A DNA stretch of 29,766 nt from a virus (Duplodnaviria > Heunggongvirae > Uroviricota > Caudoviricetes). Positions 3,227 to 14,647 of this stretch are shown here, in pieces. The stretch lies in the IMG/VR virus record IMGVR_UViG_2541047966_000011, positions 1-29,766 of that record; one strand, given 5' to 3'. The first letter of the stretch is position 1; every line of letters starts with the position of its first letter. The translations under genes were made by a program, and so were the position numbers. The notes below the pieces were generated by a model. That model was not told the origin of the DNA and did no database searches. It saw only the letters and a program-made list of their open reading frames with translations.

Positions 3227-3852
3227 TGGTTGCCTCCTTTGCGAATCTGTTCCGCCCATTCTTCAAGGGATTTCTCCGCATATTCACCGGACAGGCCATC
3301 AATCGGGTGCGGCTCATTAGCCAACTCTTCTTTCGCTGACAGAATCATGCGCGTAACGTCGAAAACTTCACGCAAAGACTTATTGATAAATCCGTGATTG
3401 AACGCAGCAGCAAGACGGCTGGCGGCATAATTAATCCCCTCGTTGCGTGCTTCCGCACGTACTTCAGCAAGGAAAGCGTCGGTGGCTGGGGTATTTTCCA
3501 TTAGTTTTTTTGACGTTGACCAAAGCGCGGAAAGCCACTCTTTATCAAACCATTTATCCTTATGGTGAAACATTTCATCAACTGTCTGGTGGCAGCGGGA
3601 TACCTCAAAAAGGCACCGCGCATTCTCCGCCGCCAGCGCTGAAAACTTCTCGTGTGCCAACTTAACAGCCGCATCAGCCTGCTTAATTGACTCAATCGCT
3701 TTCTGGTGGTCTTCGGACAGAGCCGAAATCTTGGCCTCCGCTTCAGCAAATTTACGCACCAGATATTCAGCATTTGTTTCATTCACTTTCAGATCTCGTG
3801 GTACACATTTCCCGCGAAGAAACCCTTCCATTTCGAAAACATTCATGCGCAT
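3223..3852 (-). CDS. Ead/Ea22-like protein (paralog C)
   Basis: 209 aa sharing internal and C-terminal blocks with paralog B. ATG at 3852 has GGAG about 8 nt upstream; stop overlaps the paralog B start (GTGA). Confidence 0.55.
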   Translation of the reverse strand: MRMNVFEMEGFLRGKCVPRDLKVNETNAEYLVRKFAEAEAKISALSEDHQKAIESIKQADAAVKLAHEKFSALAAENARCLFEVSRCHQTVDEMFHHKDKWFDKEWLSALWSTSKKLMENTPATDAFLAEVRAEARNEGINYAASRLAAAFNHGFINKSLREVFDVTRMILSAKEELANEPHPIDGLSGEYAEKSLEEWAEQIRKGGNQ

Positions 3853-4379
3853 TTGCGTAACTCCGATAACTCGTTAAAACGTTCCATAAACATCCCGTAG
3901 GCATGGCCTGGCGACAGTGGAATCACTTTGAACATCTCTGTTGCCGGGATACCTTCCAGTACAGGCCAGAAAGAGCCATCATCAAGCCCGAGATCGCGGC
4001 GTTCGGTTGCCAGCATGATGAGATCGGCATATTTCACGGGCGTGCTCATAACCGGGGGTAACCCGTATTTCTCACGGATTACGGCGTCTATTTTTTCTTC
4101 CATCCGTTTATAGTCAGGAAGAAGGCGTTTCAGTGGCGCGGGGATGTCCTGACAATACGCTTCTGTTGCATCATGCATTAACGCTTCGAAAGCAAACTCC
4201 TGCGGTACCAGTTGGCTGCAAAGCACCGCATGTTGGGCGACGCTGTAGAAGTGTGAAAGATGTCCTGCAAAGCGACAGATATTTGAAAGGGAAACCGCGA
4301 TATCGTTAATCACGATGTCGTCTTTATTTATCCTGTCATAATAAAAATGCTTCCCGGAAAAAGTTTTAATAAATGACAT
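3843..4379 (-). CDS. HD-domain phosphohydrolase (YfdR-like 5'-deoxynucleotidase family)
   Basis: H...HD...D signature in GHLSHFYSVAQHAVLCSQ...ALMHDATEAY. Start placed at the ATG at 4379 (MSFIKTF...) with GGAG 6 nt upstream; the ORF-track frame extends to 4406. Confidence 0.7.
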   Translation of the reverse strand: MSFIKTFSGKHFYYDRINKDDIVINDIAVSLSNICRFAGHLSHFYSVAQHAVLCSQLVPQEFAFEALMHDATEAYCQDIPAPLKRLLPDYKRMEEKIDAVIREKYGLPPVMSTPVKYADLIMLATERRDLGLDDGSFWPVLEGIPATEMFKVIPLSPGHAYGMFMERFNELSELRKCA

Positions 4380-4472
4380 TTTGTTCTCCACGTATATGCG
4401 CTGCACCGCGCTGAATTCTGGTAAAAGGAAGCCCTCACCATCCGGTGATTATTGAGTTAATTACGTTTCCAT

Positions 4473-4506: not shown

Positions 4507-5331
4507 TCAGGCGGTGAAAGTACCAATAAAGGTTTCTACTTTGCTGTCTTTGAATTTCTCAACAAGCAGATCACGAAATTCGTTAGCCATTTCTTCCTGC
4601 ACCGCTTCCAGCTGAATAATGCGCAGAACCAGTACAGGACGATCGCCAGTGATAATGCTGAGGCGTAATTTAAATGGACGTTCTTTCAGACCTTCAAACG
4701 GAACGCATTTAAATTCAAATGCCACTGGCATAATATCTTTGGTCTTCGCTTCGACAGACTCCATCAGGGAGCGTTTGCCGCTGAAGTCATTATCTTCAAA
4801 ATCAGCGGTCTGGTTCGCTTCAATTGTGATTTTACGGATAGCCGCCGCCGCTTTGGTTGCCTGAATGGCGTCACCATTAGCATCAAAGCCCACAAGGTAG
4901 TCGGCCCAGTCTTCAATCCATTCTGCCAGTGATTTCTGGGAGTTACGCTCGCCATTAATAGACAACAGAGCAGAGAACGGTGCTGTCTTTTTCAGTTTGA
5001 GAGTGGCGGTGTTATCTGCGTGACCTGGTTCATCAATAGTACCCAGGTTAAGCACACTGACGGCACGCATATTATCAGCATCGATAAAGCAGCGGGTGCC
5101 TTCATCTGCAAGCTCTTTAGAATAACGGGTAAAGTCATCGATGCTGGCAGTGGAAAGCGCACCACGGAAACGGAAGCGATTTAAATTAAATTTTTCCAGA
5201 TCATGAATGCGGAAATTCTCAGGCAATGCCACAGCATCGGCACCAATCTTACTGATAATTTCATTAACACCCTGAGAAGAAATAAGGGCATGGATTTGAT
5301 TAATTGCGGTTGCGTCTAAGTTCTGAGACAT
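4507..5331 (-). CDS. YfdQ-like protein (DUF2303-type) of unknown function
   Basis: 274 aa; N-terminus [17 protein letters not shown]... matches what I recall of E. coli CPS-53 YfdQ. GAGGA lies 6 nt upstream of the ATG. Confidence 0.6.
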
Positions 5332-5396: not shown

Positions 5397-5759
5397 TTAA
5401 TGACCTGCTGCGCGGAGTTTTCCGTCAGGTTCACCGGCAAGAGTCAGTAATTGTCCCTGGTCTTCCTGCAGAATAGTCAGGCGACCACCGCGATTGACAT
5501 ACATCGGCGTTTCGGTGGTGTCTTCTTCGGAAATTTTCCCGCGGTTAGTCGGGCGAACATATGAGAGTTTGTGTTTGATTTTCACACGGTTCTCATCAAA
5601 CGGTTCGATTTCCAGATTGAGTGAGACCTTCCCTTTGGTTTTCGTGTTCATCACACCGGAAGCGACTTCACTGAGAACTGCGCCGATTTTGGTTTCAAAT
5701 ACGCCGCCGTCCAGCTCCCCGATAAATGCCTGCACATCAGTACTGCGTTCGCTAGCCAT
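5397..5759 (-). CDS. hypothetical early-left protein (YfdP-like, ~120 aa)
   Basis: Start placed at the ATG at 5759 (MASERSTD...) with GAGGAG 7 nt upstream; the ORF-track frame extends to 5777. It is the first gene downstream of the long leftward leader. Confidence 0.5.
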   Translation of the reverse strand: MASERSTDVQAFIGELDGGVFETKIGAVLSEVASGVMNTKTKGKVSLNLEIEPFDENRVKIKHKLSYVRPTNRGKISEEDTTETPMYVNRGGRLTILQEDQGQLLTLAGEPDGKLRAAGH

Positions 5760-5807
5760 TTTGCTGCTCCTCATCATATCGACCCTGCAAGGTCGGTTGG
5801 TTTATCC

Positions 5808-5896
5808 ACAAAACAGAGAAGAACACCTGCGGTGGCAGCCGCCCGGATGGATTGGGTTATGAGCCCGTCGTCCGGTGATGTTCTTCTCTGTTTTGT
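5808..5896 (-). promoter_or_regulatory. 18-bp perfect inverted repeat forming a long stem-loop in the early-left leader
   Basis: ACAAAACAGAGAAGAACA at 5808-5825 is the exact reverse complement of 5879-5896, with a 53-nt loop. It sits 36 nt upstream of the RBS of the first early-left gene and is not followed by a U-tract. Confidence 0.45.
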
Positions 5897-6371
5897 AAAA
5901 AGAGCGGTACCAGCCGGAAGCAAGTGTACAAACTGGTACCGCCAAAGCAGTGGCTGTTGTGGTGACCGGTGCTGATCTCCGGCTTGCGGTTATTTCAGAC
6001 TCTCACGGGCGTTTAATTGCCCCGCCGAACAGCTCTTTTCCGCAATAGCTGCAATGTCTTTCGCGCATCAGCCTGCGCATTCACCACAACGCTGAGAGCA
6101 CTTAGCCAGTTACGGCACCACACTTTGTCGCGGTTCCATAAATGCCCTCATCGTTGCACCCTGGTCTCTTCCCAGGTGTCAAACCGAACCGCCACGCTGG
6201 TTAGGCGTCTTATCAGCATCATCATTGACTTGCACATTCCGGCTACCTGGTTTGTTTGCCCGAGCAAGGAGGGGATTGTCCCCTTTAACGTCCCCAGACC
6301 GCTAACGACGCATGTGCCATACGCCGTGTTACAACCAAATTTTGTTTAATCTTGCCTGTGACATGTTTCTT

Positions 6372-6407
6372 TTGGATACATTATGTATCTCATGGGTACA
6401 TTGCCAA
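6372..6407 (-). promoter_or_regulatory. candidate leftward early promoter (PL-like) overlapped by a palindromic operator
   Basis: On the minus strand: TTGGCA (plus 6402-6407), 16-nt spacer, CATAAT (plus 6380-6385). The perfect palindrome GATACATtATGTATC (6375-6389) overlaps the -10. Confidence 0.4.
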
Positions 6408-6410
6408 GTA

Positions 6411-6432
6411 TAAAAAAACCTGCCGAAGCAGG
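6411..6432 (-). terminator. intrinsic terminator downstream of the repressor gene
   Basis: Minus-strand transcript reads CCTGC-ttcg-GCAGG followed by TTTTTTTA, 14 nt past the repressor stop. Confidence 0.5.
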
Positions 6433-6445
6433 TTATAAATATTGA

Positions 6446-7120
6446 TTAGGCCTTTATTTTGTATCTTCTTGGTTTTCCTGAGAAAATTACTGTACCAATT
6501 ATAGAGCAATTACCGTTGATCTTAATGTAAGGTTCAGGCCAGTTTGGGTTTAATGCTTTGAGGTAACGCTGTGTTCCATCTTCTATCAACCGCTTAAAGG
6601 TGGTTTCGCCTGTATCGTGCATCAATGCAATAACGTCGTCACCGTGGCAGGCAGGGACTTCAGGATCTACAAAAATCATGTCTCCCGGGCGGTACTCATC
6701 AATCATTGAATCACCAATCACCCGCAAGATATAAGTCATTTCGCCACAGGGTACAGGGCAGGGATAAGTTTCTGCTGTGCTCAAATCAACCTCAGAATAG
6801 CCAACTTCTTTCCATGCTCCGGCCTGTACCCATGATATGACAGGGACTAACGTTATTTGTTTGTTAGTAATTGAAACATCAGGTTTTTTTGTGATGTTTG
6901 TTGTCTGGTGTTCTTGATCAAGCCATCCGACAGGCAGGTCGAAACATTTTTCGATGTGCCGTGCCATGCTGTCACCGATATTTTTAGTAGCACCATCTCC
7001 CATAAACCTGCTGGTCTGGGTTGGCTCGCGATCAATCATGGTGGCAAAGGAAGAATTCCCGCCAACACCATCTCTCAGTTTTCTGGCGTTAGACCGCCGG
7101 ATGTCATGGACTGTTTTCAT
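6446..7120 (-). CDS. CI-like prophage repressor with N-terminal HTH and C-terminal S24 (LexA-like) peptidase domain
   Basis: 224 aa. The C-terminal half contains GDSM (catalytic Ser context) and a downstream Lys, typical of S24 autocleaving repressors. Divergent from the Cro-like gene. No SD upstream of the ATG, so the mRNA may be leaderless. Confidence 0.85.
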   Translation of the reverse strand: MKTVHDIRRSNARKLRDGVGGNSSFATMIDREPTQTSRFMGDGATKNIGDSMARHIEKCFDLPVGWLDQEHQTTNITKKPDVSITNKQITLVPVISWVQAGAWKEVGYSEVDLSTAETYPCPVPCGEMTYILRVIGDSMIDEYRPGDMIFVDPEVPACHGDDVIALMHDTGETTFKRLIEDGTQRYLKALNPNWPEPYIKINGNCSIIGTVIFSGKPRRYKIKA

Positions 7121-7210
7121 AACGAAATTAAAACCTTTGTACCGATAGGGTACAAGTATCTTGAAGGTTCATCTCAATCATGTAATATGTATATCGGAGG
7201 TACATATTGT
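7121..7210. promoter_or_regulatory. divergent promoter and operator region between repressor and Cro-like gene
   Basis: 90-bp AT-rich gap containing the palindrome TTGTACC-gatag-GGTACAA (7137-7155), ATATGTATAT/TACATATTGTA-type motifs, and a candidate rightward promoter TTGAAG (7161-7166)-N16-TAATAT (7183-7188). Confidence 0.5.
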
Positions 7211-7411
7211 ATGAAAGCGTATTGGGACTCTTTAACCAAAGAACAGCAGGGCGAGTTGGCCGGAAAAGTTGGCTCAACACCAGGCTACTTACGGCTGGTT
7301 TTCAATGGTTATAAAAAAGCCAGTTTTGTGCTGGCTAAAAAACTTGAGCAATGCACGTCAGGTGCAATTACGAAATCTGACTTAAGACCGGATATCTATC
7401 CGAAAGATTAA
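7211..7411 (+). CDS. Cro-like HTH regulator (YdaS family-like)
   Basis: 66 aa, GGAGG 10 nt upstream of the ATG. C-terminal ...ITKSDLRPDIY matches the conserved YdaS-type tail as recalled. Divergent from the repressor. Confidence 0.7.
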   Translation: MKAYWDSLTKEQQGELAGKVGSTPGYLRLVFNGYKKASFVLAKKLEQCTSGAITKSDLRPDIYPKD

Positions 7412-7442: not shown

Positions 7443-8006
7443 ATGAGGCTAACCGTGGGTAAGCATCACTGGAAAGTAGAAAAACAGCCTGAGTGGTACG
7501 TGAAAGCTGTCAGAAAAACTATCGCGGCGTTGCCGGGGGGTTACGCTGAAGCTGCTGAGTGGCTGGATGTAACAGAGAACGCTTTATTCAACCGCCTTCG
7601 TGCAGATGGCGATCAGATTTTCCCGCTGGGATGGGCAATGATTTTACAGCGCGCGGCTGGCACTCACTACATTGCGGATGCTGTCGCACAGTCTGCTGGT
7701 GGGGTGTTTGTATCGCTTCCTGAAATTGAGGAAGTAGAGAACGCCGATATAAACCAGCGCCTGCTGGAAGTCATCGAACAGATCGGGAGTTACTCAAAGC
7801 AGATTCGTTCGGCAATCGAAGATGGGGTAGTGGAGCCACACGAGCAGACAGCAATTAATGATGAGTTGTATCTGTCAATTTCGAAGCTCCAGGAACATGC
7901 AGCACTGGTCTACAAAATCTTTTGCGCTCCAGAAAAGAGTGACGCCCGCGAGTGTGCAGCTCCGGGCGTCGTGGCGTTTTGTGTCTGTGGAGAAACTAAC
8001 GCATGA
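7443..8006 (+). CDS. CII-like regulator (YdaT-family-like)
   Basis: 187 aa immediately after the Cro-like gene, the position CII occupies in lambdoid phages. Family assignment from memory, not a visible motif. Confidence 0.5.
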   Translation: MRLTVGKHHWKVEKQPEWYVKAVRKTIAALPGGYAEAAEWLDVTENALFNRLRADGDQIFPLGWAMILQRAAGTHYIADAVAQSAGGVFVSLPEIEEVENADINQRLLEVIEQIGSYSKQIRSAIEDGVVEPHEQTAINDELYLSISKLQEHAALVYKIFCAPEKSDARECAAPGVVAFCVCGETNA

Positions 8007-8151
8007 ACAGTTTAACGGCAAATAACCGTTTGTCGCAACAGCTGGTGGTCAGTGTCGCTGCACACCTGTTGTTACGGCATGAATGCAGATTACCAAATCA
8101 CCTGGCTGTAAGTAACCACAGAGAACTTTACCTGACTGTGGGGGGCGAGTT

Positions 8152-8331
8152 GTGCAGGAACTTAACCGCTGGTTTCGTGACGGAAGAGGACTTTATGTTC
8201 ATGTTATTCGTTGGGAGCCAGAAACACAGCGCGTTATCTATCTTCGCAAAGACTACCCGCATGAGTGCTTTAGTCCTTTGTGGAAATTCAGGCGTGATTT
8301 TGTTGAGTGTGAAGGACCACCAGCACATTGA
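8152..8331 (+). CDS. small hypothetical protein (59 aa), uncertain
   Basis: Not in the ORF track. GTG start after a G-rich stretch (GGGGGGCGAG); translation VQELNRWFRDGRGLYVHVIRWEPETQRVIYLRKDYPHECFSPLWKFRRDFVECEGPPAH. Protein-like composition but no recognised family. Confidence 0.3.
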   Translation: MQELNRWFRDGRGLYVHVIRWEPETQRVIYLRKDYPHECFSPLWKFRRDFVECEGPPAH

Positions 8332-8608
8332 TTCTGCCATTCCGGGACGTTACACTGTTCAGGCACCTTATAAAACGGGTGCCGGGATTGGCGTCCTGAA
8401 ATTGATTACTGAGCATAACCGCGCTCATGCGGTTTTTTCGTGTCATGAGCATTGCTACGCCCAAATTATGGTGGGGCGTACAGGGCCGACTTCGGTCGGG
8501 CCGGGTTCGGTAGTCTCCGGTAACGCCAACCCTGTACGTCTCACCACCTCTGTGATTGGCGTCCCATGTGGTGAGTTTTCTAAAAAACTGACTACCGGGG
8601 CTGTCACC

Positions 8609-9166
8609 ATGACTACTCTCCCAACCCTCTCTCAACCTGAAATTGCCATCGTTGATGGTCAGGCTGTTACATCTTCTTTGGCTGTTGCTGACTTCTTCTC
8701 TAAACGTCATGACGATGTTCTGAAAAAGATCCGCATTTTGGATTGTTCTCCAGAGTTTTGTGCCCGCAATTTTGCGGAGACATCAATTTTGGTACGCCAG
8801 CCCAACGGCGGTACTCGCAAACTTCCTTGCTATCAAATAACCCGCGACGGCTTTGCGTTTCTTGCTATGGGTTTCACGGGGAAACGTGCTGCCCAGTTCA
8901 AAGAGGCATACATCAATGCCTTTAACCAGATGGAGAAACAGCTTTCAAAGCCCTCTGTACCGAGCGACGTTGCACATAACGCCAGCGTTCTCTGTTCCTA
9001 CATTTCATCAATTCATCAGGTCTGGTTGCAGCAGCTTTATCCCATGCTGGAAAAAGCTGAATCACCGCTGGCTGTAAGTCTGTATGACCGAATTAACGAT
9101 GCGGCATTTCTTGCCCGTCTTATTCATTCGTCGCTGAACTCTTCAGAGGTAAGGGGGCGCAAATGA
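8609..9166 (+). CDS. rha: phage regulatory protein Rha
   Basis: From ATG 8609: MTTLPTLSQPEIAIVDGQAVTSSLAVADFFSKRHDDVLKKI...PCYQITRDGFAFLAMGFTGKRAAQFKEAYINAF, a typical Rha N-terminal pattern. The ORF-track frame runs from 8003, but the upstream 200 codons look non-genic. Confidence 0.7.
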   Translation: MTTLPTLSQPEIAIVDGQAVTSSLAVADFFSKRHDDVLKKIRILDCSPEFCARNFAETSILVRQPNGGTRKLPCYQITRDGFAFLAMGFTGKRAAQFKEAYINAFNQMEKQLSKPSVPSDVAHNASVLCSYISSIHQVWLQQLYPMLEKAESPLAVSLYDRINDAAFLARLIHSSLNSSEVRGRK

Positions 9167-13894: not shown

Positions 13895-14647
13895 ATGAAC
13901 CTTGAAGCCTTACCAAAATATTACTCCCCAAAATCTCCAAAACTGAGCGATGACGCACCGGCGACAGGCTCGGGTGGTTTAACGATTACGGATGTGATGG
14001 CTGCGCAGGGGATGGTGCAGTCGAAAGCACCGCTTGGGTTTGCCTTATTTCTGGCAAAAGTTGGTGTTCAGGATCCTCAGTTTGCGATTGAAGGTCTGCT
14101 CAATTACGCGATGGCACTGGATAACCCGACATTGAACAAATTGAGTGAAGAAACCCGGTTACAGATCATCCCTTACCTTGTGAATTTTGCCTTTGCTGAT
14201 TATTCCAGGTCTGCGGCAAGTAAGGCTCGCTGTGGGCATTGTGCTGGTACTGGATTTCATAATGTATTGCGCGAAGTGGTGAAACACTCCAGAAGCGGGG
14301 AATCTGTTATCAAGGAAGAGTGGGTGAAGGAACTATGTCAGCATTGCCATGGTAAGGGAGAAGTCAGCACAGCGTGCAGAGGGTGTAAGGGTAAAGGTAT
14401 TGTCCTGGATGAAAAAAGGACCCGGCTTCATGGCACGCCTGTTTATAAGATTTGTGGGCGTTGCAATGGAAACCGGTTTAGCCGTTTACCAACCACACTG
14501 GCGCGGCATCATGTCCAGAAGCTGGTACCAGACCTGACGGATTATCAGTGGTACAAAGGATATGCAGATGTCATTGATAAACTGGTGACAAAGTGCTGGC
14601 AGGAAGAAGCATATGCTGAGGCGCAATTAAGAAAAGTGACGAGATAA
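13895..14647 (+). CDS. late-gene antitermination protein Q-like
   Basis: 250 aa with several CxxC motifs (CGHCAGTG, CQHCHGKG, CRGCKGKG, CGRCNG). It is the last gene before a promoter/terminator module and the lysis cassette, which is the canonical Q position. Confidence 0.65.
   Translation: MNLEALPKYYSPKSPKLSDDAPATGSGGLTITDVMAAQGMVQSKAPLGFALFLAKVGVQDPQFAIEGLLNYAMALDNPTLNKLSEETRLQIIPYLVNFAFADYSRSAASKARCGHCAGTGFHNVLREVVKHSRSGESVIKEEWVKELCQHCHGKGEVSTACRGCKGKGIVLDEKRTRLHGTPVYKICGRCNGNRFSRLPTTLARHHVQKLVPDLTDYQWYKGYADVIDKLVTKCWQEEAYAEAQLRKVTR

Follow-up and report, generated by a model that had tools for sequence, protein, structure and literature searches.

The 29,766-nucleotide (nt) stretch of viral DNA analyzed here (the window; IMG/VR virus record IMGVR_UViG_2541047966_000011, Caudoviricetes) is a lambdoid prophage of the SfV/cdtI/mEp460 type, and its repressor gene is separated from the first gene of its early-left operon by an unusually long leader. 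This leader, whose RNA features all lie on the minus strand, is best explained as a composite non-coding RNA gene and not a passive untranslated region. The gene for the cI-like repressor (Peptidase_S24, 6446-7120, minus strand) is followed by an intrinsic terminator found by a terminator scan (6417-6434, a 7-bp stem and then UUUUUUA), and the record of phage Ayreon annotates a terminator at the homologous place. Just downstream lies the sigma-70-like, PL-like leftward promoter (6375-6407), whose -35 hexamer TTGGCA (6407-6402) and -10 hexamer CATAAT (6385-6380) score 10 of 12 matches in a promoter scan and place the predicted start near 6373; Ayreon again carries an annotated promoter at the same site. 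PL is overlapped by the operator-like palindromes GATACATTATGTATC (6375-6389) and TGTATCTCATGGGTACA (6384-6400), which share their type with the palindrome TGTACCGATAGGGTACA at PR (7138-7154), and to judge from its sequence PL is a candidate for control by the CI repressor. From its predicted start the leader extends for about 614 nt to the ATG at 5759, the likely start codon of a YfdP-like gene of 120 amino acids (5397-5759, minus strand), which is preceded by the ribosome-binding site (RBS) GAGGAG (5772-5767).

No open reading frame (ORF) with a start codon and an RBS was found in the leader interval. Only short ORFs are present, on both strands, and the longest of these (6017-6349, plus strand) is broken in alignments with relatives by indels of 1, 2 and 4 nt. 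Phage records annotate differing, mutually incompatible small ORFs over the leader. Short ORFs on both strands at 5774-5975, over the long hairpin described below, match phrog_3651 (E = 6e-27) and phrog_33599 (E = 5e-16), two families that were probably built from spurious ORF calls over a conserved RNA. The original prediction, made from the letters of the sequence alone, had noted a stretch of about 660 bp without a gene in front of the first early-left gene and the lack of an N-like gene, and both observations stand: the approximately 614 nt from the PL start hold no credible gene, and no N-like gene was found in the window, where Q is the sole antiterminator protein found.

The 611-nt minus-strand leader folds at -232 kcal/mol, compared with a mean of -202 kcal/mol for shuffled sequences (z = -4.65; 0 of 20 shuffles as stable), so that folding of the minus-strand transcript, which had been suggested as a check, gives a structure 4.65 standard deviations better than shuffles. 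By BLAST against phage genomes, 5700-6346 is 99% identical in mEp460, which carries another repressor, and identity with this phage of another immunity type ends at 6346. Because the block 5778-6346 is shared unchanged with a phage of different immunity, it belongs to the early-left module. The leader interval is 88-91% identical in cdtI, Ayreon, 2H10 and fifteen Stx2c phages (BLAST), and of 5426 complete E. coli genomes 2662 have some part of it and 1136 carry at least 80% of the leader. Among the RefSeq records listed, the longer leader matches are unannotated and some of the partial ones are labeled only "hypothetical protein". Portions of the leader also recur farther afield. P1 has 6163-6340 between trnI and ban, and O157 typing phage 9 has 6084-6327 immediately in front of a tRNA-Arg; a stretch of 40 nt, 6062-6102, is shared at about 92% identity by very different lytic phages, among them Ackermannviridae, N4-like and T1-like ones. 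The earlier picture of a structured interval without a gene behind a candidate PL is thus borne out: the interval is non-coding, strongly structured and conserved, and lies behind a putatively repressor-controlled leftward promoter.

A common plan emerges from five phages of E. coli, Shigella, Salmonella and Klebsiella (the window, SfV, ST64B, Kp4866-6 and Eeyore), in which PL is followed by a 5' element, a helix that we call helix X, a closed cassette, an intrinsic terminator, a long hairpin, a small hairpin and the RBS. The fold is supported by covariation in the core (the cassette of the window), in parts of the 5' domain (its 5' element), in the terminator and in the long hairpin. All of the structural evidence is comparative or thermodynamic, and the sequence sets were collected by exact-match patterns, which fixed some alignment columns. 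Rfam returned no match in the leader of the window, and a full-text literature search with the motif sequences found none either. Two inverted repeats that had first drawn attention as the main features of the region prove to be downstream accessories, the terminator and the long hairpin, of a larger RNA element spanning 6340-5956.

The core, which we term type A, is a tRNA-shaped four-way junction (5956-6090) defined by covariation and RNAfold. Its closing helix P1 pairs GUUGUGGUG (6090-6082) with CACCACAAC (5964-5956) and is followed by AAU (6081-6079) and by P2, a 4-bp stem with an 8-nt loop (GCGC-AGGCUGAU-GCGC, 6078-6063); then come a variable insert, or cargo (6062-5984), and P3, a 5-bp stem that abuts the closing helix (GCCGG-AGAUCAGCA-CCGGU, 5983-5965). 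RNAfold of the isolated window segment returns the same junction. When 65 distinct sequences were aligned, with the insert replaced by AAAA, 94.8% of cells paired, compared with at most 50% when the partners were slid, and 10 pairs showed double changes, a count that none of 500 shuffles reached; three of the four P2 pairs and four of the five P3 pairs covary. P2 was collected without a pairing filter; one was applied in choosing P3 and the closing helix's 3' strand, whose figures therefore lean towards the model. The loops of P2 and P3 are complementary to each other (GCUGA/UCAGC) in 65 of 65 sequences, with changes only to G-U wobbles, loop 1 having been fixed by the search pattern.

Pattern scans of IMG/VR each returned at least 120 loci, and the hits represent at least 87 sequence contexts, with inserts of 12-178 nt that are unrelated between contexts. 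The exact 25-nt 5' motif of the core occurs in 51 species representatives from several proteobacterial classes, among them Enterobacterales, Aeromonas, Moraxellaceae, Lysobacterales, Martelella, a Geobacteraceae genome and, within the Betaproteobacteria, Massilia, Janthinobacterium, Undibacterium and Xenophilus. In several prophages the core begins a few bases after a promoter of its own, without the 5' domain. A terminator-like hairpin lies within 110 nt downstream in 48 of 116 distinct type A cores, and for only 9 of the 116 is there a tRNA on the same strand no more than 150 nt away. In Klebsiella phage 6991 the RNA is a free-standing gene, since it runs against both of its neighbors and has a promoter to itself. 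Each module occurs once in the 29.8 kb of the window, with no second copy near PR or PR'.

Some inserts resemble other RNAs. In four IMG/VR prophages or phages (L187, L196, L203 and L206) the insert is a copy-like mimic of 16S rRNA helix 11, matching E. coli 16S positions 243-282 at 82-85% identity with changes that keep the stem paired, and in the Geobacteraceae genome (L277) the insert holds an entire tRNA-like unit. P1 (L004, reverse-complement 296-420, 571-690 and 1496-1685) carries a type A core with a compensatory GCACA/UGUGC in P2, an STnc100-like element upstream of tciA, and the 5' domain between trnI and ban; since the first two are antisense to the annotated upl and plp ORFs, these annotations may be spurious. 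Several candidate identities for the leader or its core were discarded. BLAST hits adjoining tRNAs had raised the possibility of tRNA genes in the leader, and neither ARAGORN nor the Rfam tRNA and tmRNA (transfer-messenger RNA) models found a tRNA or tmRNA gene there or elsewhere in the window. The core was also rejected as a tmRNA's tRNA-like domain, since P1 lacks a G:U at position 3, a CCA is missing, and lytic phages have their tag frames, described below, upstream of the core and not within it. Homology to RNase P RNA or rRNA was rejected, as the window gave no E. coli BLAST hits of that kind, and possible likenesses to RNase P CR-III, 16S 350-390 and 23S 2452-2460 are short. The P3 hairpin GCCGGAGAUCAGCACCGG is nearly identical to the central hairpin GCCGGAGAUAAGCGCCGG of the K-12 sRNA RydB (L319 3714-3781) over 18 nt (Rfam, 13.7 bits); identity with RydB was rejected because the flanks of the hairpin do not match. 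A pairing of AAAAGAGC in the insert with GCUCUUUU in the terminator (repeat I2) was also set aside, about three such 8-mers being expected by chance.

Downstream of the core, the perfect 10-bp repeat at 5904-5913/5933-5942 was recovered and extends on the minus-strand RNA to a 13-bp stem (5943-5931 with 5915-5903) with a 15-nt loop, followed by CUUUUU. This hairpin (5897-5943, -21 kcal/mol) looks like an intrinsic terminator. SfV, ST64B, Kp4866-6 and Eeyore have a terminator of different sequence at the same position, with compensatory pairs, and that of SfV aligns to the terminator of the Rfam STnc100 model. The perfect 18-bp repeat at 5808-5825/5879-5896 is likewise present and extends to 25 nt at 88% complementarity (5808-5832/5872-5896), forming a long hairpin of about 25 bp (5805-5899, 104 nt, -49 kcal/mol) whose 5' arm begins within the U tract of the terminator. 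Its tip, CGACGGGCUCAUAACCCAAUCCAUCCGG, is nearly invariant in phages of E. coli, Salmonella and Klebsiella (consensus over the five phages, CGACGGGCUCAUWMCCCAAUCCAYCCGG), and several of its stem pairs show compensatory change in an RNAalifold comparison of the five. As a modeled 25-bp duplex it is a plausible substrate for RNase III. A role in translational occlusion, which had also been proposed, does not fit, since the hairpin ends 36 nt upstream of the RBS and does not cover it. A small hairpin (5778-5797, -8.5 kcal/mol) sits just upstream of the RBS; in ST64B, Kp4866-6 and Eeyore this site holds a hairpin of another sequence (GGCGGUGGCAGCCGCC), and covariation counts in favor of the small hairpin as well.

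What lies inside the closing helix is exchangeable. Between the same closing-helix strands, cdtI, Ayreon and the Stx2c phages carry about 100 nt of unrelated sequence; SfV, ST64B, Kp4866-6 and Eeyore have a third interior at the core position; and in typing phage 9 a tRNA-Arg takes this position after the same 5' domain. SfV and the window have identical flanks (CGUU-GUGGUGAAUGCG ... CACCACAAC ... GGCGGUACCAG) around different interiors. The Rfam model for the small RNA (sRNA) STnc100 (RF02076) matches the SfV cassette together with its terminator over the full model (39.5 bits, E = 3e-7 on 501 nt), that of ST64B at 35.1 bits and a site in P1 at 33.4 bits, all below the gathering score of 47 bits. 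The window gave no STnc100 match at E ≤ 10 on 231 nt, at E ≤ 10 on 2 kb or at E ≤ 1 over its whole length. In the STnc100 consensus, a closing helix UGGUG/CACCA leads into AAU and a first hairpin; an insert separates this from a second hairpin, which abuts the closing helix, and then come a spacer and a terminator. Comparison of the structure line of the model with our covariation-supported fold shows the same architecture in the window element from core to terminator.

Other likenesses to STnc100 are the length class of about 200 nt, a prophage location (including sites downstream of Q and beside lysis genes) and the fact that the sub-cut-off matches in SfV and ST64B occupy the same leader position, with identical flanks. 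The two differ in their hairpins, which in STnc100 are CCCCC..GGGG and CCGGG-AGGCA-CCCGG and in the window GCGC-AGGCUGAU-GCGC and GCCGG-AGAUCAGCA-CCGGY. Type A is also far more widespread, reaching lytic phages and beta-, alpha- and deltaproteobacterial genomes, and the window element, unlike STnc100, is fused behind a 240-nt 5' domain and placed under PL. STnc100 and PasD are prophage sRNAs of Salmonella and pathogenic E. coli that share structure and probably ancestry (bioRxiv 10.64898/2026.05.13.724894), and PasD has been validated by Northern blots and RIL-seq and needs Hfq for stability (PMC8550237). The likeness of the window element to PasD runs via STnc100. The earlier suggestion that the leader may encode a small RNA fits 6090-5897, which has the STnc100 architecture and whose counterparts in SfV and ST64B match STnc100 below the cut-off.

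Upstream of the core lies the 5' domain, a conserved structured RNA module of about 240 nt (6104-6340). It consists of a hairpin at 6327-6305, an invariant 22-mer, CCAGGUAGCCGGAAUGUGCAAG (6250-6229), a variable hairpin, and a hairpin at 6177-6161 with the loop GGAAGAG. The domain is kept in P1 (after trnI), in O157 typing phage 9 (before the tRNA-Arg) and in Klebsiella phage Kp4866-6, and has no match in Rfam. RNAalifold of 11 diverse copies, including the diverged Klebsiella one, found 9 pairs with compensatory change, located in the helix GCGGUCUGG/CCAGGUAGCC, the variable hairpin and the GGAAGAG-loop hairpin, whose covarying pairs show 5, 4 and 3 double changes. For the hairpin at 6327-6305 two compensatory pairs are seen by eye in the Klebsiella copy, and RNAalifold prefers a long-range alternative. 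Helix X (6088-6151) pairs GAUGAGGGCAUU (6151-6140) with AGUGCUCUCAGC (6102-6091), encloses a replaceable insert and is followed by CGUU. The junction ..CAACRRU-GAGAGCAUU, insert, AGUGCUCUY..CGUU is shared by lambdoid, Klebsiella and lytic phages, whose inserts are unrelated and sometimes tRNA-like, and helix X itself, GAGRGCAUU/AGUGCUCUY as read directly from the compared sequences, is shared with the lytic-phage RNAs together with the CGUU linker.

We considered a switch in which the terminator loop CUUGCUUCCGGCU (5919-5907) would pair with AGCCGGAA-UGU-GCAAG (6244-6229) over 13 bp with a 3-nt bulge. It was rejected because SfV has the same loop without the 5' domain and Kp4866-6 has the 5' domain with an unrelated terminator; the pairing with the 22-mer, which is not conserved in relatives, is probably a coincidence. 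In the lytic phages Magnus and 6991 of Klebsiella and nithesis of E. coli, tmRNA-like tag frames lie on the minus strand about 250-300 nt upstream of a type A core, with helix X and the core further along that RNA. One such frame reads GCA AAC GAU GAU GUA GUU CUG AUG GCG GCG UAA UAG (ANDDVVLMAA), and others encode ANEEMYLAVA and ANDDVILMAA. Rfam gives weak tmRNA matches at these frames (E from 0.0004 to 0.07), and no chargeable tRNA-like domain was found in the tag RNAs of the three phages. Positions 6229-6190 of the window (AAUGUGCAAGUCAAUGAUGAUGCUGAUAAGACGCCUAA) look like a degenerate relative of this region. The 5' domain is not the only module found behind PL. In ST64B, SfV (2500-2410 of L263) and Eeyore a conserved element of about 65 nt, AACAGGCAGGACGCCCACGAAGUAGCCGCC..GGAUGAUUCG, which we read as two stems, opens the PL transcript within its first 70 nt or so, where HK022 has putL; in the window the 5' domain replaces it after a shared ACAGGCARGA.

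Taken together, the evidence best supports reading 6090-5897 as an STnc100-like sRNA, which would represent a new subtype with a very wide distribution. We propose that PL transcription that stops at the terminator yields one or more such sRNAs and that read-through yields the early-left mRNA, a scheme to which we give an even chance of being right. Its computed elements are the promoter and terminator signals, the covarying folds, the STnc100-like position and architecture, the cassette exchange and the distribution; the efficiency of termination, processing, Hfq binding, action in trans and the targets are what we infer from them. When CI repression is lifted, or upon infection, RNA polymerase would start near 6373, transcribe the 5' domain, helix X and the type A core, and then meet the terminator at 5943-5897. 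Terminated transcripts of about 475 nt would be the main early product and would probably be cut at the module junctions. The resulting 3' product, about 195 nt long (approximately 6090-5897), would be the structural counterpart of the Hfq-dependent STnc100 and PasD, with a closed multi-branch scaffold carrying a replaceable insert, a short single-stranded spacer, a terminator hairpin and a U tail. The insert, the spacer or the invariant loops would be the parts with which it acts in trans, whether as a decoy or by base pairing. The fraction that reads through would make the yfdP-yfdQ-yfdR-like early-left mRNA. Since this mRNA needs read-through, the terminator is proposed to gate these genes, and the long hairpin that starts in the U tract would be a likely processing or stabilizing element of the mRNA.

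We stop at an even chance because the expression of the RNA, its processing, its binding by Hfq and its action in trans are all inferences, and several findings weigh against an sRNA of this kind. The STnc100 model misses the core of the window, so the link to the family runs through position and architecture only, and the U tail of the terminator has only 5 U. The P2 and P3 loops are almost invariant and mutually complementary, which suits a tertiary contact over a seed, and exact conservation of 25 nt across proteobacterial classes is unusual for sRNAs with lineage-specific targets. Some copies lie in tRNA arrays or have inserts resembling tRNA or 16S helix 11, and in O157 typing phage 9 a tRNA-Arg takes the place of the core; together with the cross-class conservation, this suggests a tRNA-related or scaffold role. 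The sRNA model, moreover, offers no function for the 5' domain. The conservation of complementary loops across classes and the equivalence with a tRNA keep two other explanations alive, one built on tRNA mimicry and one on antitermination by RNA.

In the former, the core would be a stable RNA that mimics the shape of a tRNA: P1 would stand for the acceptor stem, the 4-bp stem with its 8-nt A-GG loop for the D arm, the 5-bp stem for the T arm and the loop-loop pairing for the elbow. RNase P and other tRNA-processing enzymes would excise it. It could then serve as a decoy or as a scaffold presenting the insert, for example against tRNA-targeting defenses or in binding ribosomal or tRNA-binding proteins. 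The cloverleaf-like geometry with its covariation, the conservation across proteobacterial classes, and inserts that are tRNA-like or match 16S 243-282 with compensatory changes all agree with this idea, as does the neighborhood of the core, which abuts tRNA genes in Massilia, Geobacteraceae, Aeromonas and P1 and is replaced exactly, after the same 5' domain, by the tRNA-Arg of typing phage 9. Yet neither ARAGORN nor the Rfam tRNA model recognizes it, no CCA follows P1, there is no G3:U70, the 9-nt T-like loop does not show the T-loop consensus, and a tRNA on the same strand lies within 150 nt of just 9 of 116 copies. In our estimation tRNA mimicry is unlikely. A broader proposal, fairly unlikely as it stands, is that the core is an uncatalogued pan-proteobacterial, tRNA-shaped phage RNA scaffold with an invariant loop-loop lock and exchangeable inserts (base-pairing seeds, tRNA-like arms or a 16S helix-11 mimic), which in lytic phages forms part of larger modular RNAs with tmRNA-like tag frames; with the 5' domain, it could be the missing RNA device for passage through the PL-proximal terminator in the N-less phages of the SfV/cdtI/mEp460/Stx2c group. 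That the leader is instead non-functional mosaic debris, made of decayed genes and recombination scars that fold by chance, is scarcely credible. Its cassette-like mosaicism and a possible degenerate remnant of a tmRNA-like tag region could be taken that way, but compensatory changes in many helices, loops that are near-invariant across bacterial classes and the presence of leader parts in 2662 of 5426 complete E. coli genomes speak against decay.

Antitermination by RNA alone, as with put in HK022, would have the nascent 5' domain, the core or both bind RNA polymerase in cis, so that it passes the leader terminator and later early-left terminators, replacing the missing N. With no N gene and Q as the sole antiterminator protein found, such a device would fill a gap, and the element stands directly between PL and a terminator whose position the five phages share. 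Three of them (SfV, ST64B and Eeyore) open the PL transcript with the different element of about 65 nt that we read as two stems; in HK022, too, putL comes just after PL (PMC9378689). Contact with a conserved host machine would fit loops that do not vary from host to host. However, BLAST of the leader against the PL-nun interval of HK022 gave nothing below E = 1, and HK022 has both putL and putR, whereas the element of the window is a single copy in 29.8 kb with none in the PR operon. The core also exists as a free-standing gene antisense to its neighbors in a lytic phage, lies in tRNA arrays in other cases, is in some copies followed by a terminator of its own, and can be replaced by a tRNA (typing phage 9) or by unrelated interiors (cdtI, Ayreon and the Stx2c phages). 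We regard antitermination of this kind as about as unlikely as tRNA mimicry. In a direct comparison homology to HK022 put was rejected, a shared 9-mer, CAUGCGUCG, being at chance level. An N/nut arrangement as in lambda, with the hairpins as nut-like or RNase III sites that control an unrecognized N-like protein or translation of the first gene, is very improbable. The 25-bp duplex is long enough for RNase III, the invariant hairpin tip is what one would expect of a protein-binding site, and CGCUCUU at 5907-5901, on the 3' side of the terminator, equals the first 7 nt of lambda boxA. This heptamer is, however, not conserved in SfV, ST64B, Kp4866-6 or Eeyore, and no 15-nt boxB-type hairpin follows it. 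The leader contains no ORF with a start codon and an RBS, the long hairpin stops 36 nt short of the RBS, and the first PL gene is YfdP-like and not arginine-rich. The analogy with lambda drawn in the original prediction, of a nutL and an RNase III hairpin controlling first-gene translation, is thus not supported, a conserved boxA/boxB being absent.

Among known systems, HK022 put resembles the window element in belonging to an N-less lambdoid phage and in being a structured RNA that follows PL immediately and precedes terminators (PMC9378689). The put element, which suppresses later terminators in cis through the zinc-binding domain of the RNA polymerase beta' subunit, has about 70 nt in two stem-loops, whereas that of the window has about 385 nt in several domains, lacks a PR copy and is built from modules that are also found as free-standing genes. 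In its use of a promoter-proximal intrinsic terminator to make a discrete small RNA, with read-through giving the operon mRNA, the proposed arrangement resembles those of StxS and lambda 6S RNA. StxS (from PR') and 6S are short, simple terminated leader transcripts for which Q is needed for read-through; the window RNA, unlike them, is large and modular, and its promoter PL is not known to have an antiterminator. T4 RNA C/D, GOLLD and ROOL are structured, stable phage RNAs near tRNAs or in tRNA clusters, and the element described here is similarly phage-borne, highly structured and sometimes located in tRNA arrays. Unlike GOLLD and ROOL, it belongs to proteobacterial hosts and consists of smaller exchangeable modules, and Rfam found no match to either in the window. 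The C4 RNA of P1/P7 and the CI immunity RNA of P4 are tRNA-like and are processed by RNase P from an operon leader. A cloverleaf-like shape and an origin in an early-operon leader are common to these RNAs and the element; unlike C4, the leader element misses the C4 model, and a true C4 RNA is found elsewhere in the window (8464-8551). No conserved target repeats complementary to the leader element were found.

About half of the complete E. coli genomes searched carry part of this leader, as do Stx2c- and Stx2a-converting phages, cdtI and P1, and records leave it unannotated or covered by spurious small ORFs, which its recognition as a set of RNA genes would correct. The reading as an STnc100-like sRNA would extend the STnc100/PasD family to a much larger, older variant, and the leader provides a concrete candidate for the control of early-left transcription in many N-less lambdoid phages. 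How lambdoid phages without N control their early-left operon was left open by a 2025 paper (PMC12315714), and antitermination by the leader RNA, if true, would answer this question. The invariant complementary loops and swappable inserts lend themselves to simple, decisive mutational tests.

The remainder of the locus is as follows. The YfdP-like gene matches phrog_204 (E = 1e-49), has no Pfam domain and is followed by YfdQ-like (4507-5331) and YfdR-like (3843-4406) genes. The CPS-53 prophage of K-12 is 98% identical to the window only from the RBS onward and was dropped as a reference for the leader, of which it keeps just the RBS and what lies beyond. On the other side of the repressor gene are a Cro-like gene (7211-7411, plus strand) and a CII (CP76) gene (7443-8006, plus strand), with an Ash/Rha gene, RusA, KilA-N, DUF968 and the Q antiterminator (13895-14647) to the right of CII. 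At 8350-8551 on the plus strand Rfam identifies isrK RNA (8363-8439, 60 bits), C4 antisense RNA (8464-8551, 82 bits) and, as a weak hit, the C4 target a1b1 (8350-8402), which together resemble the P1/P7-type immI control module for an antirepressor. All three fall within a long ORF (8003-9166) whose residues 117-212 match Pfam Phage_ASH; its N-terminal part is therefore probably non-coding, with the true Rha-like start near 8620. The same isrK/C4 pair is present in Ayreon (L001 5644-5832).

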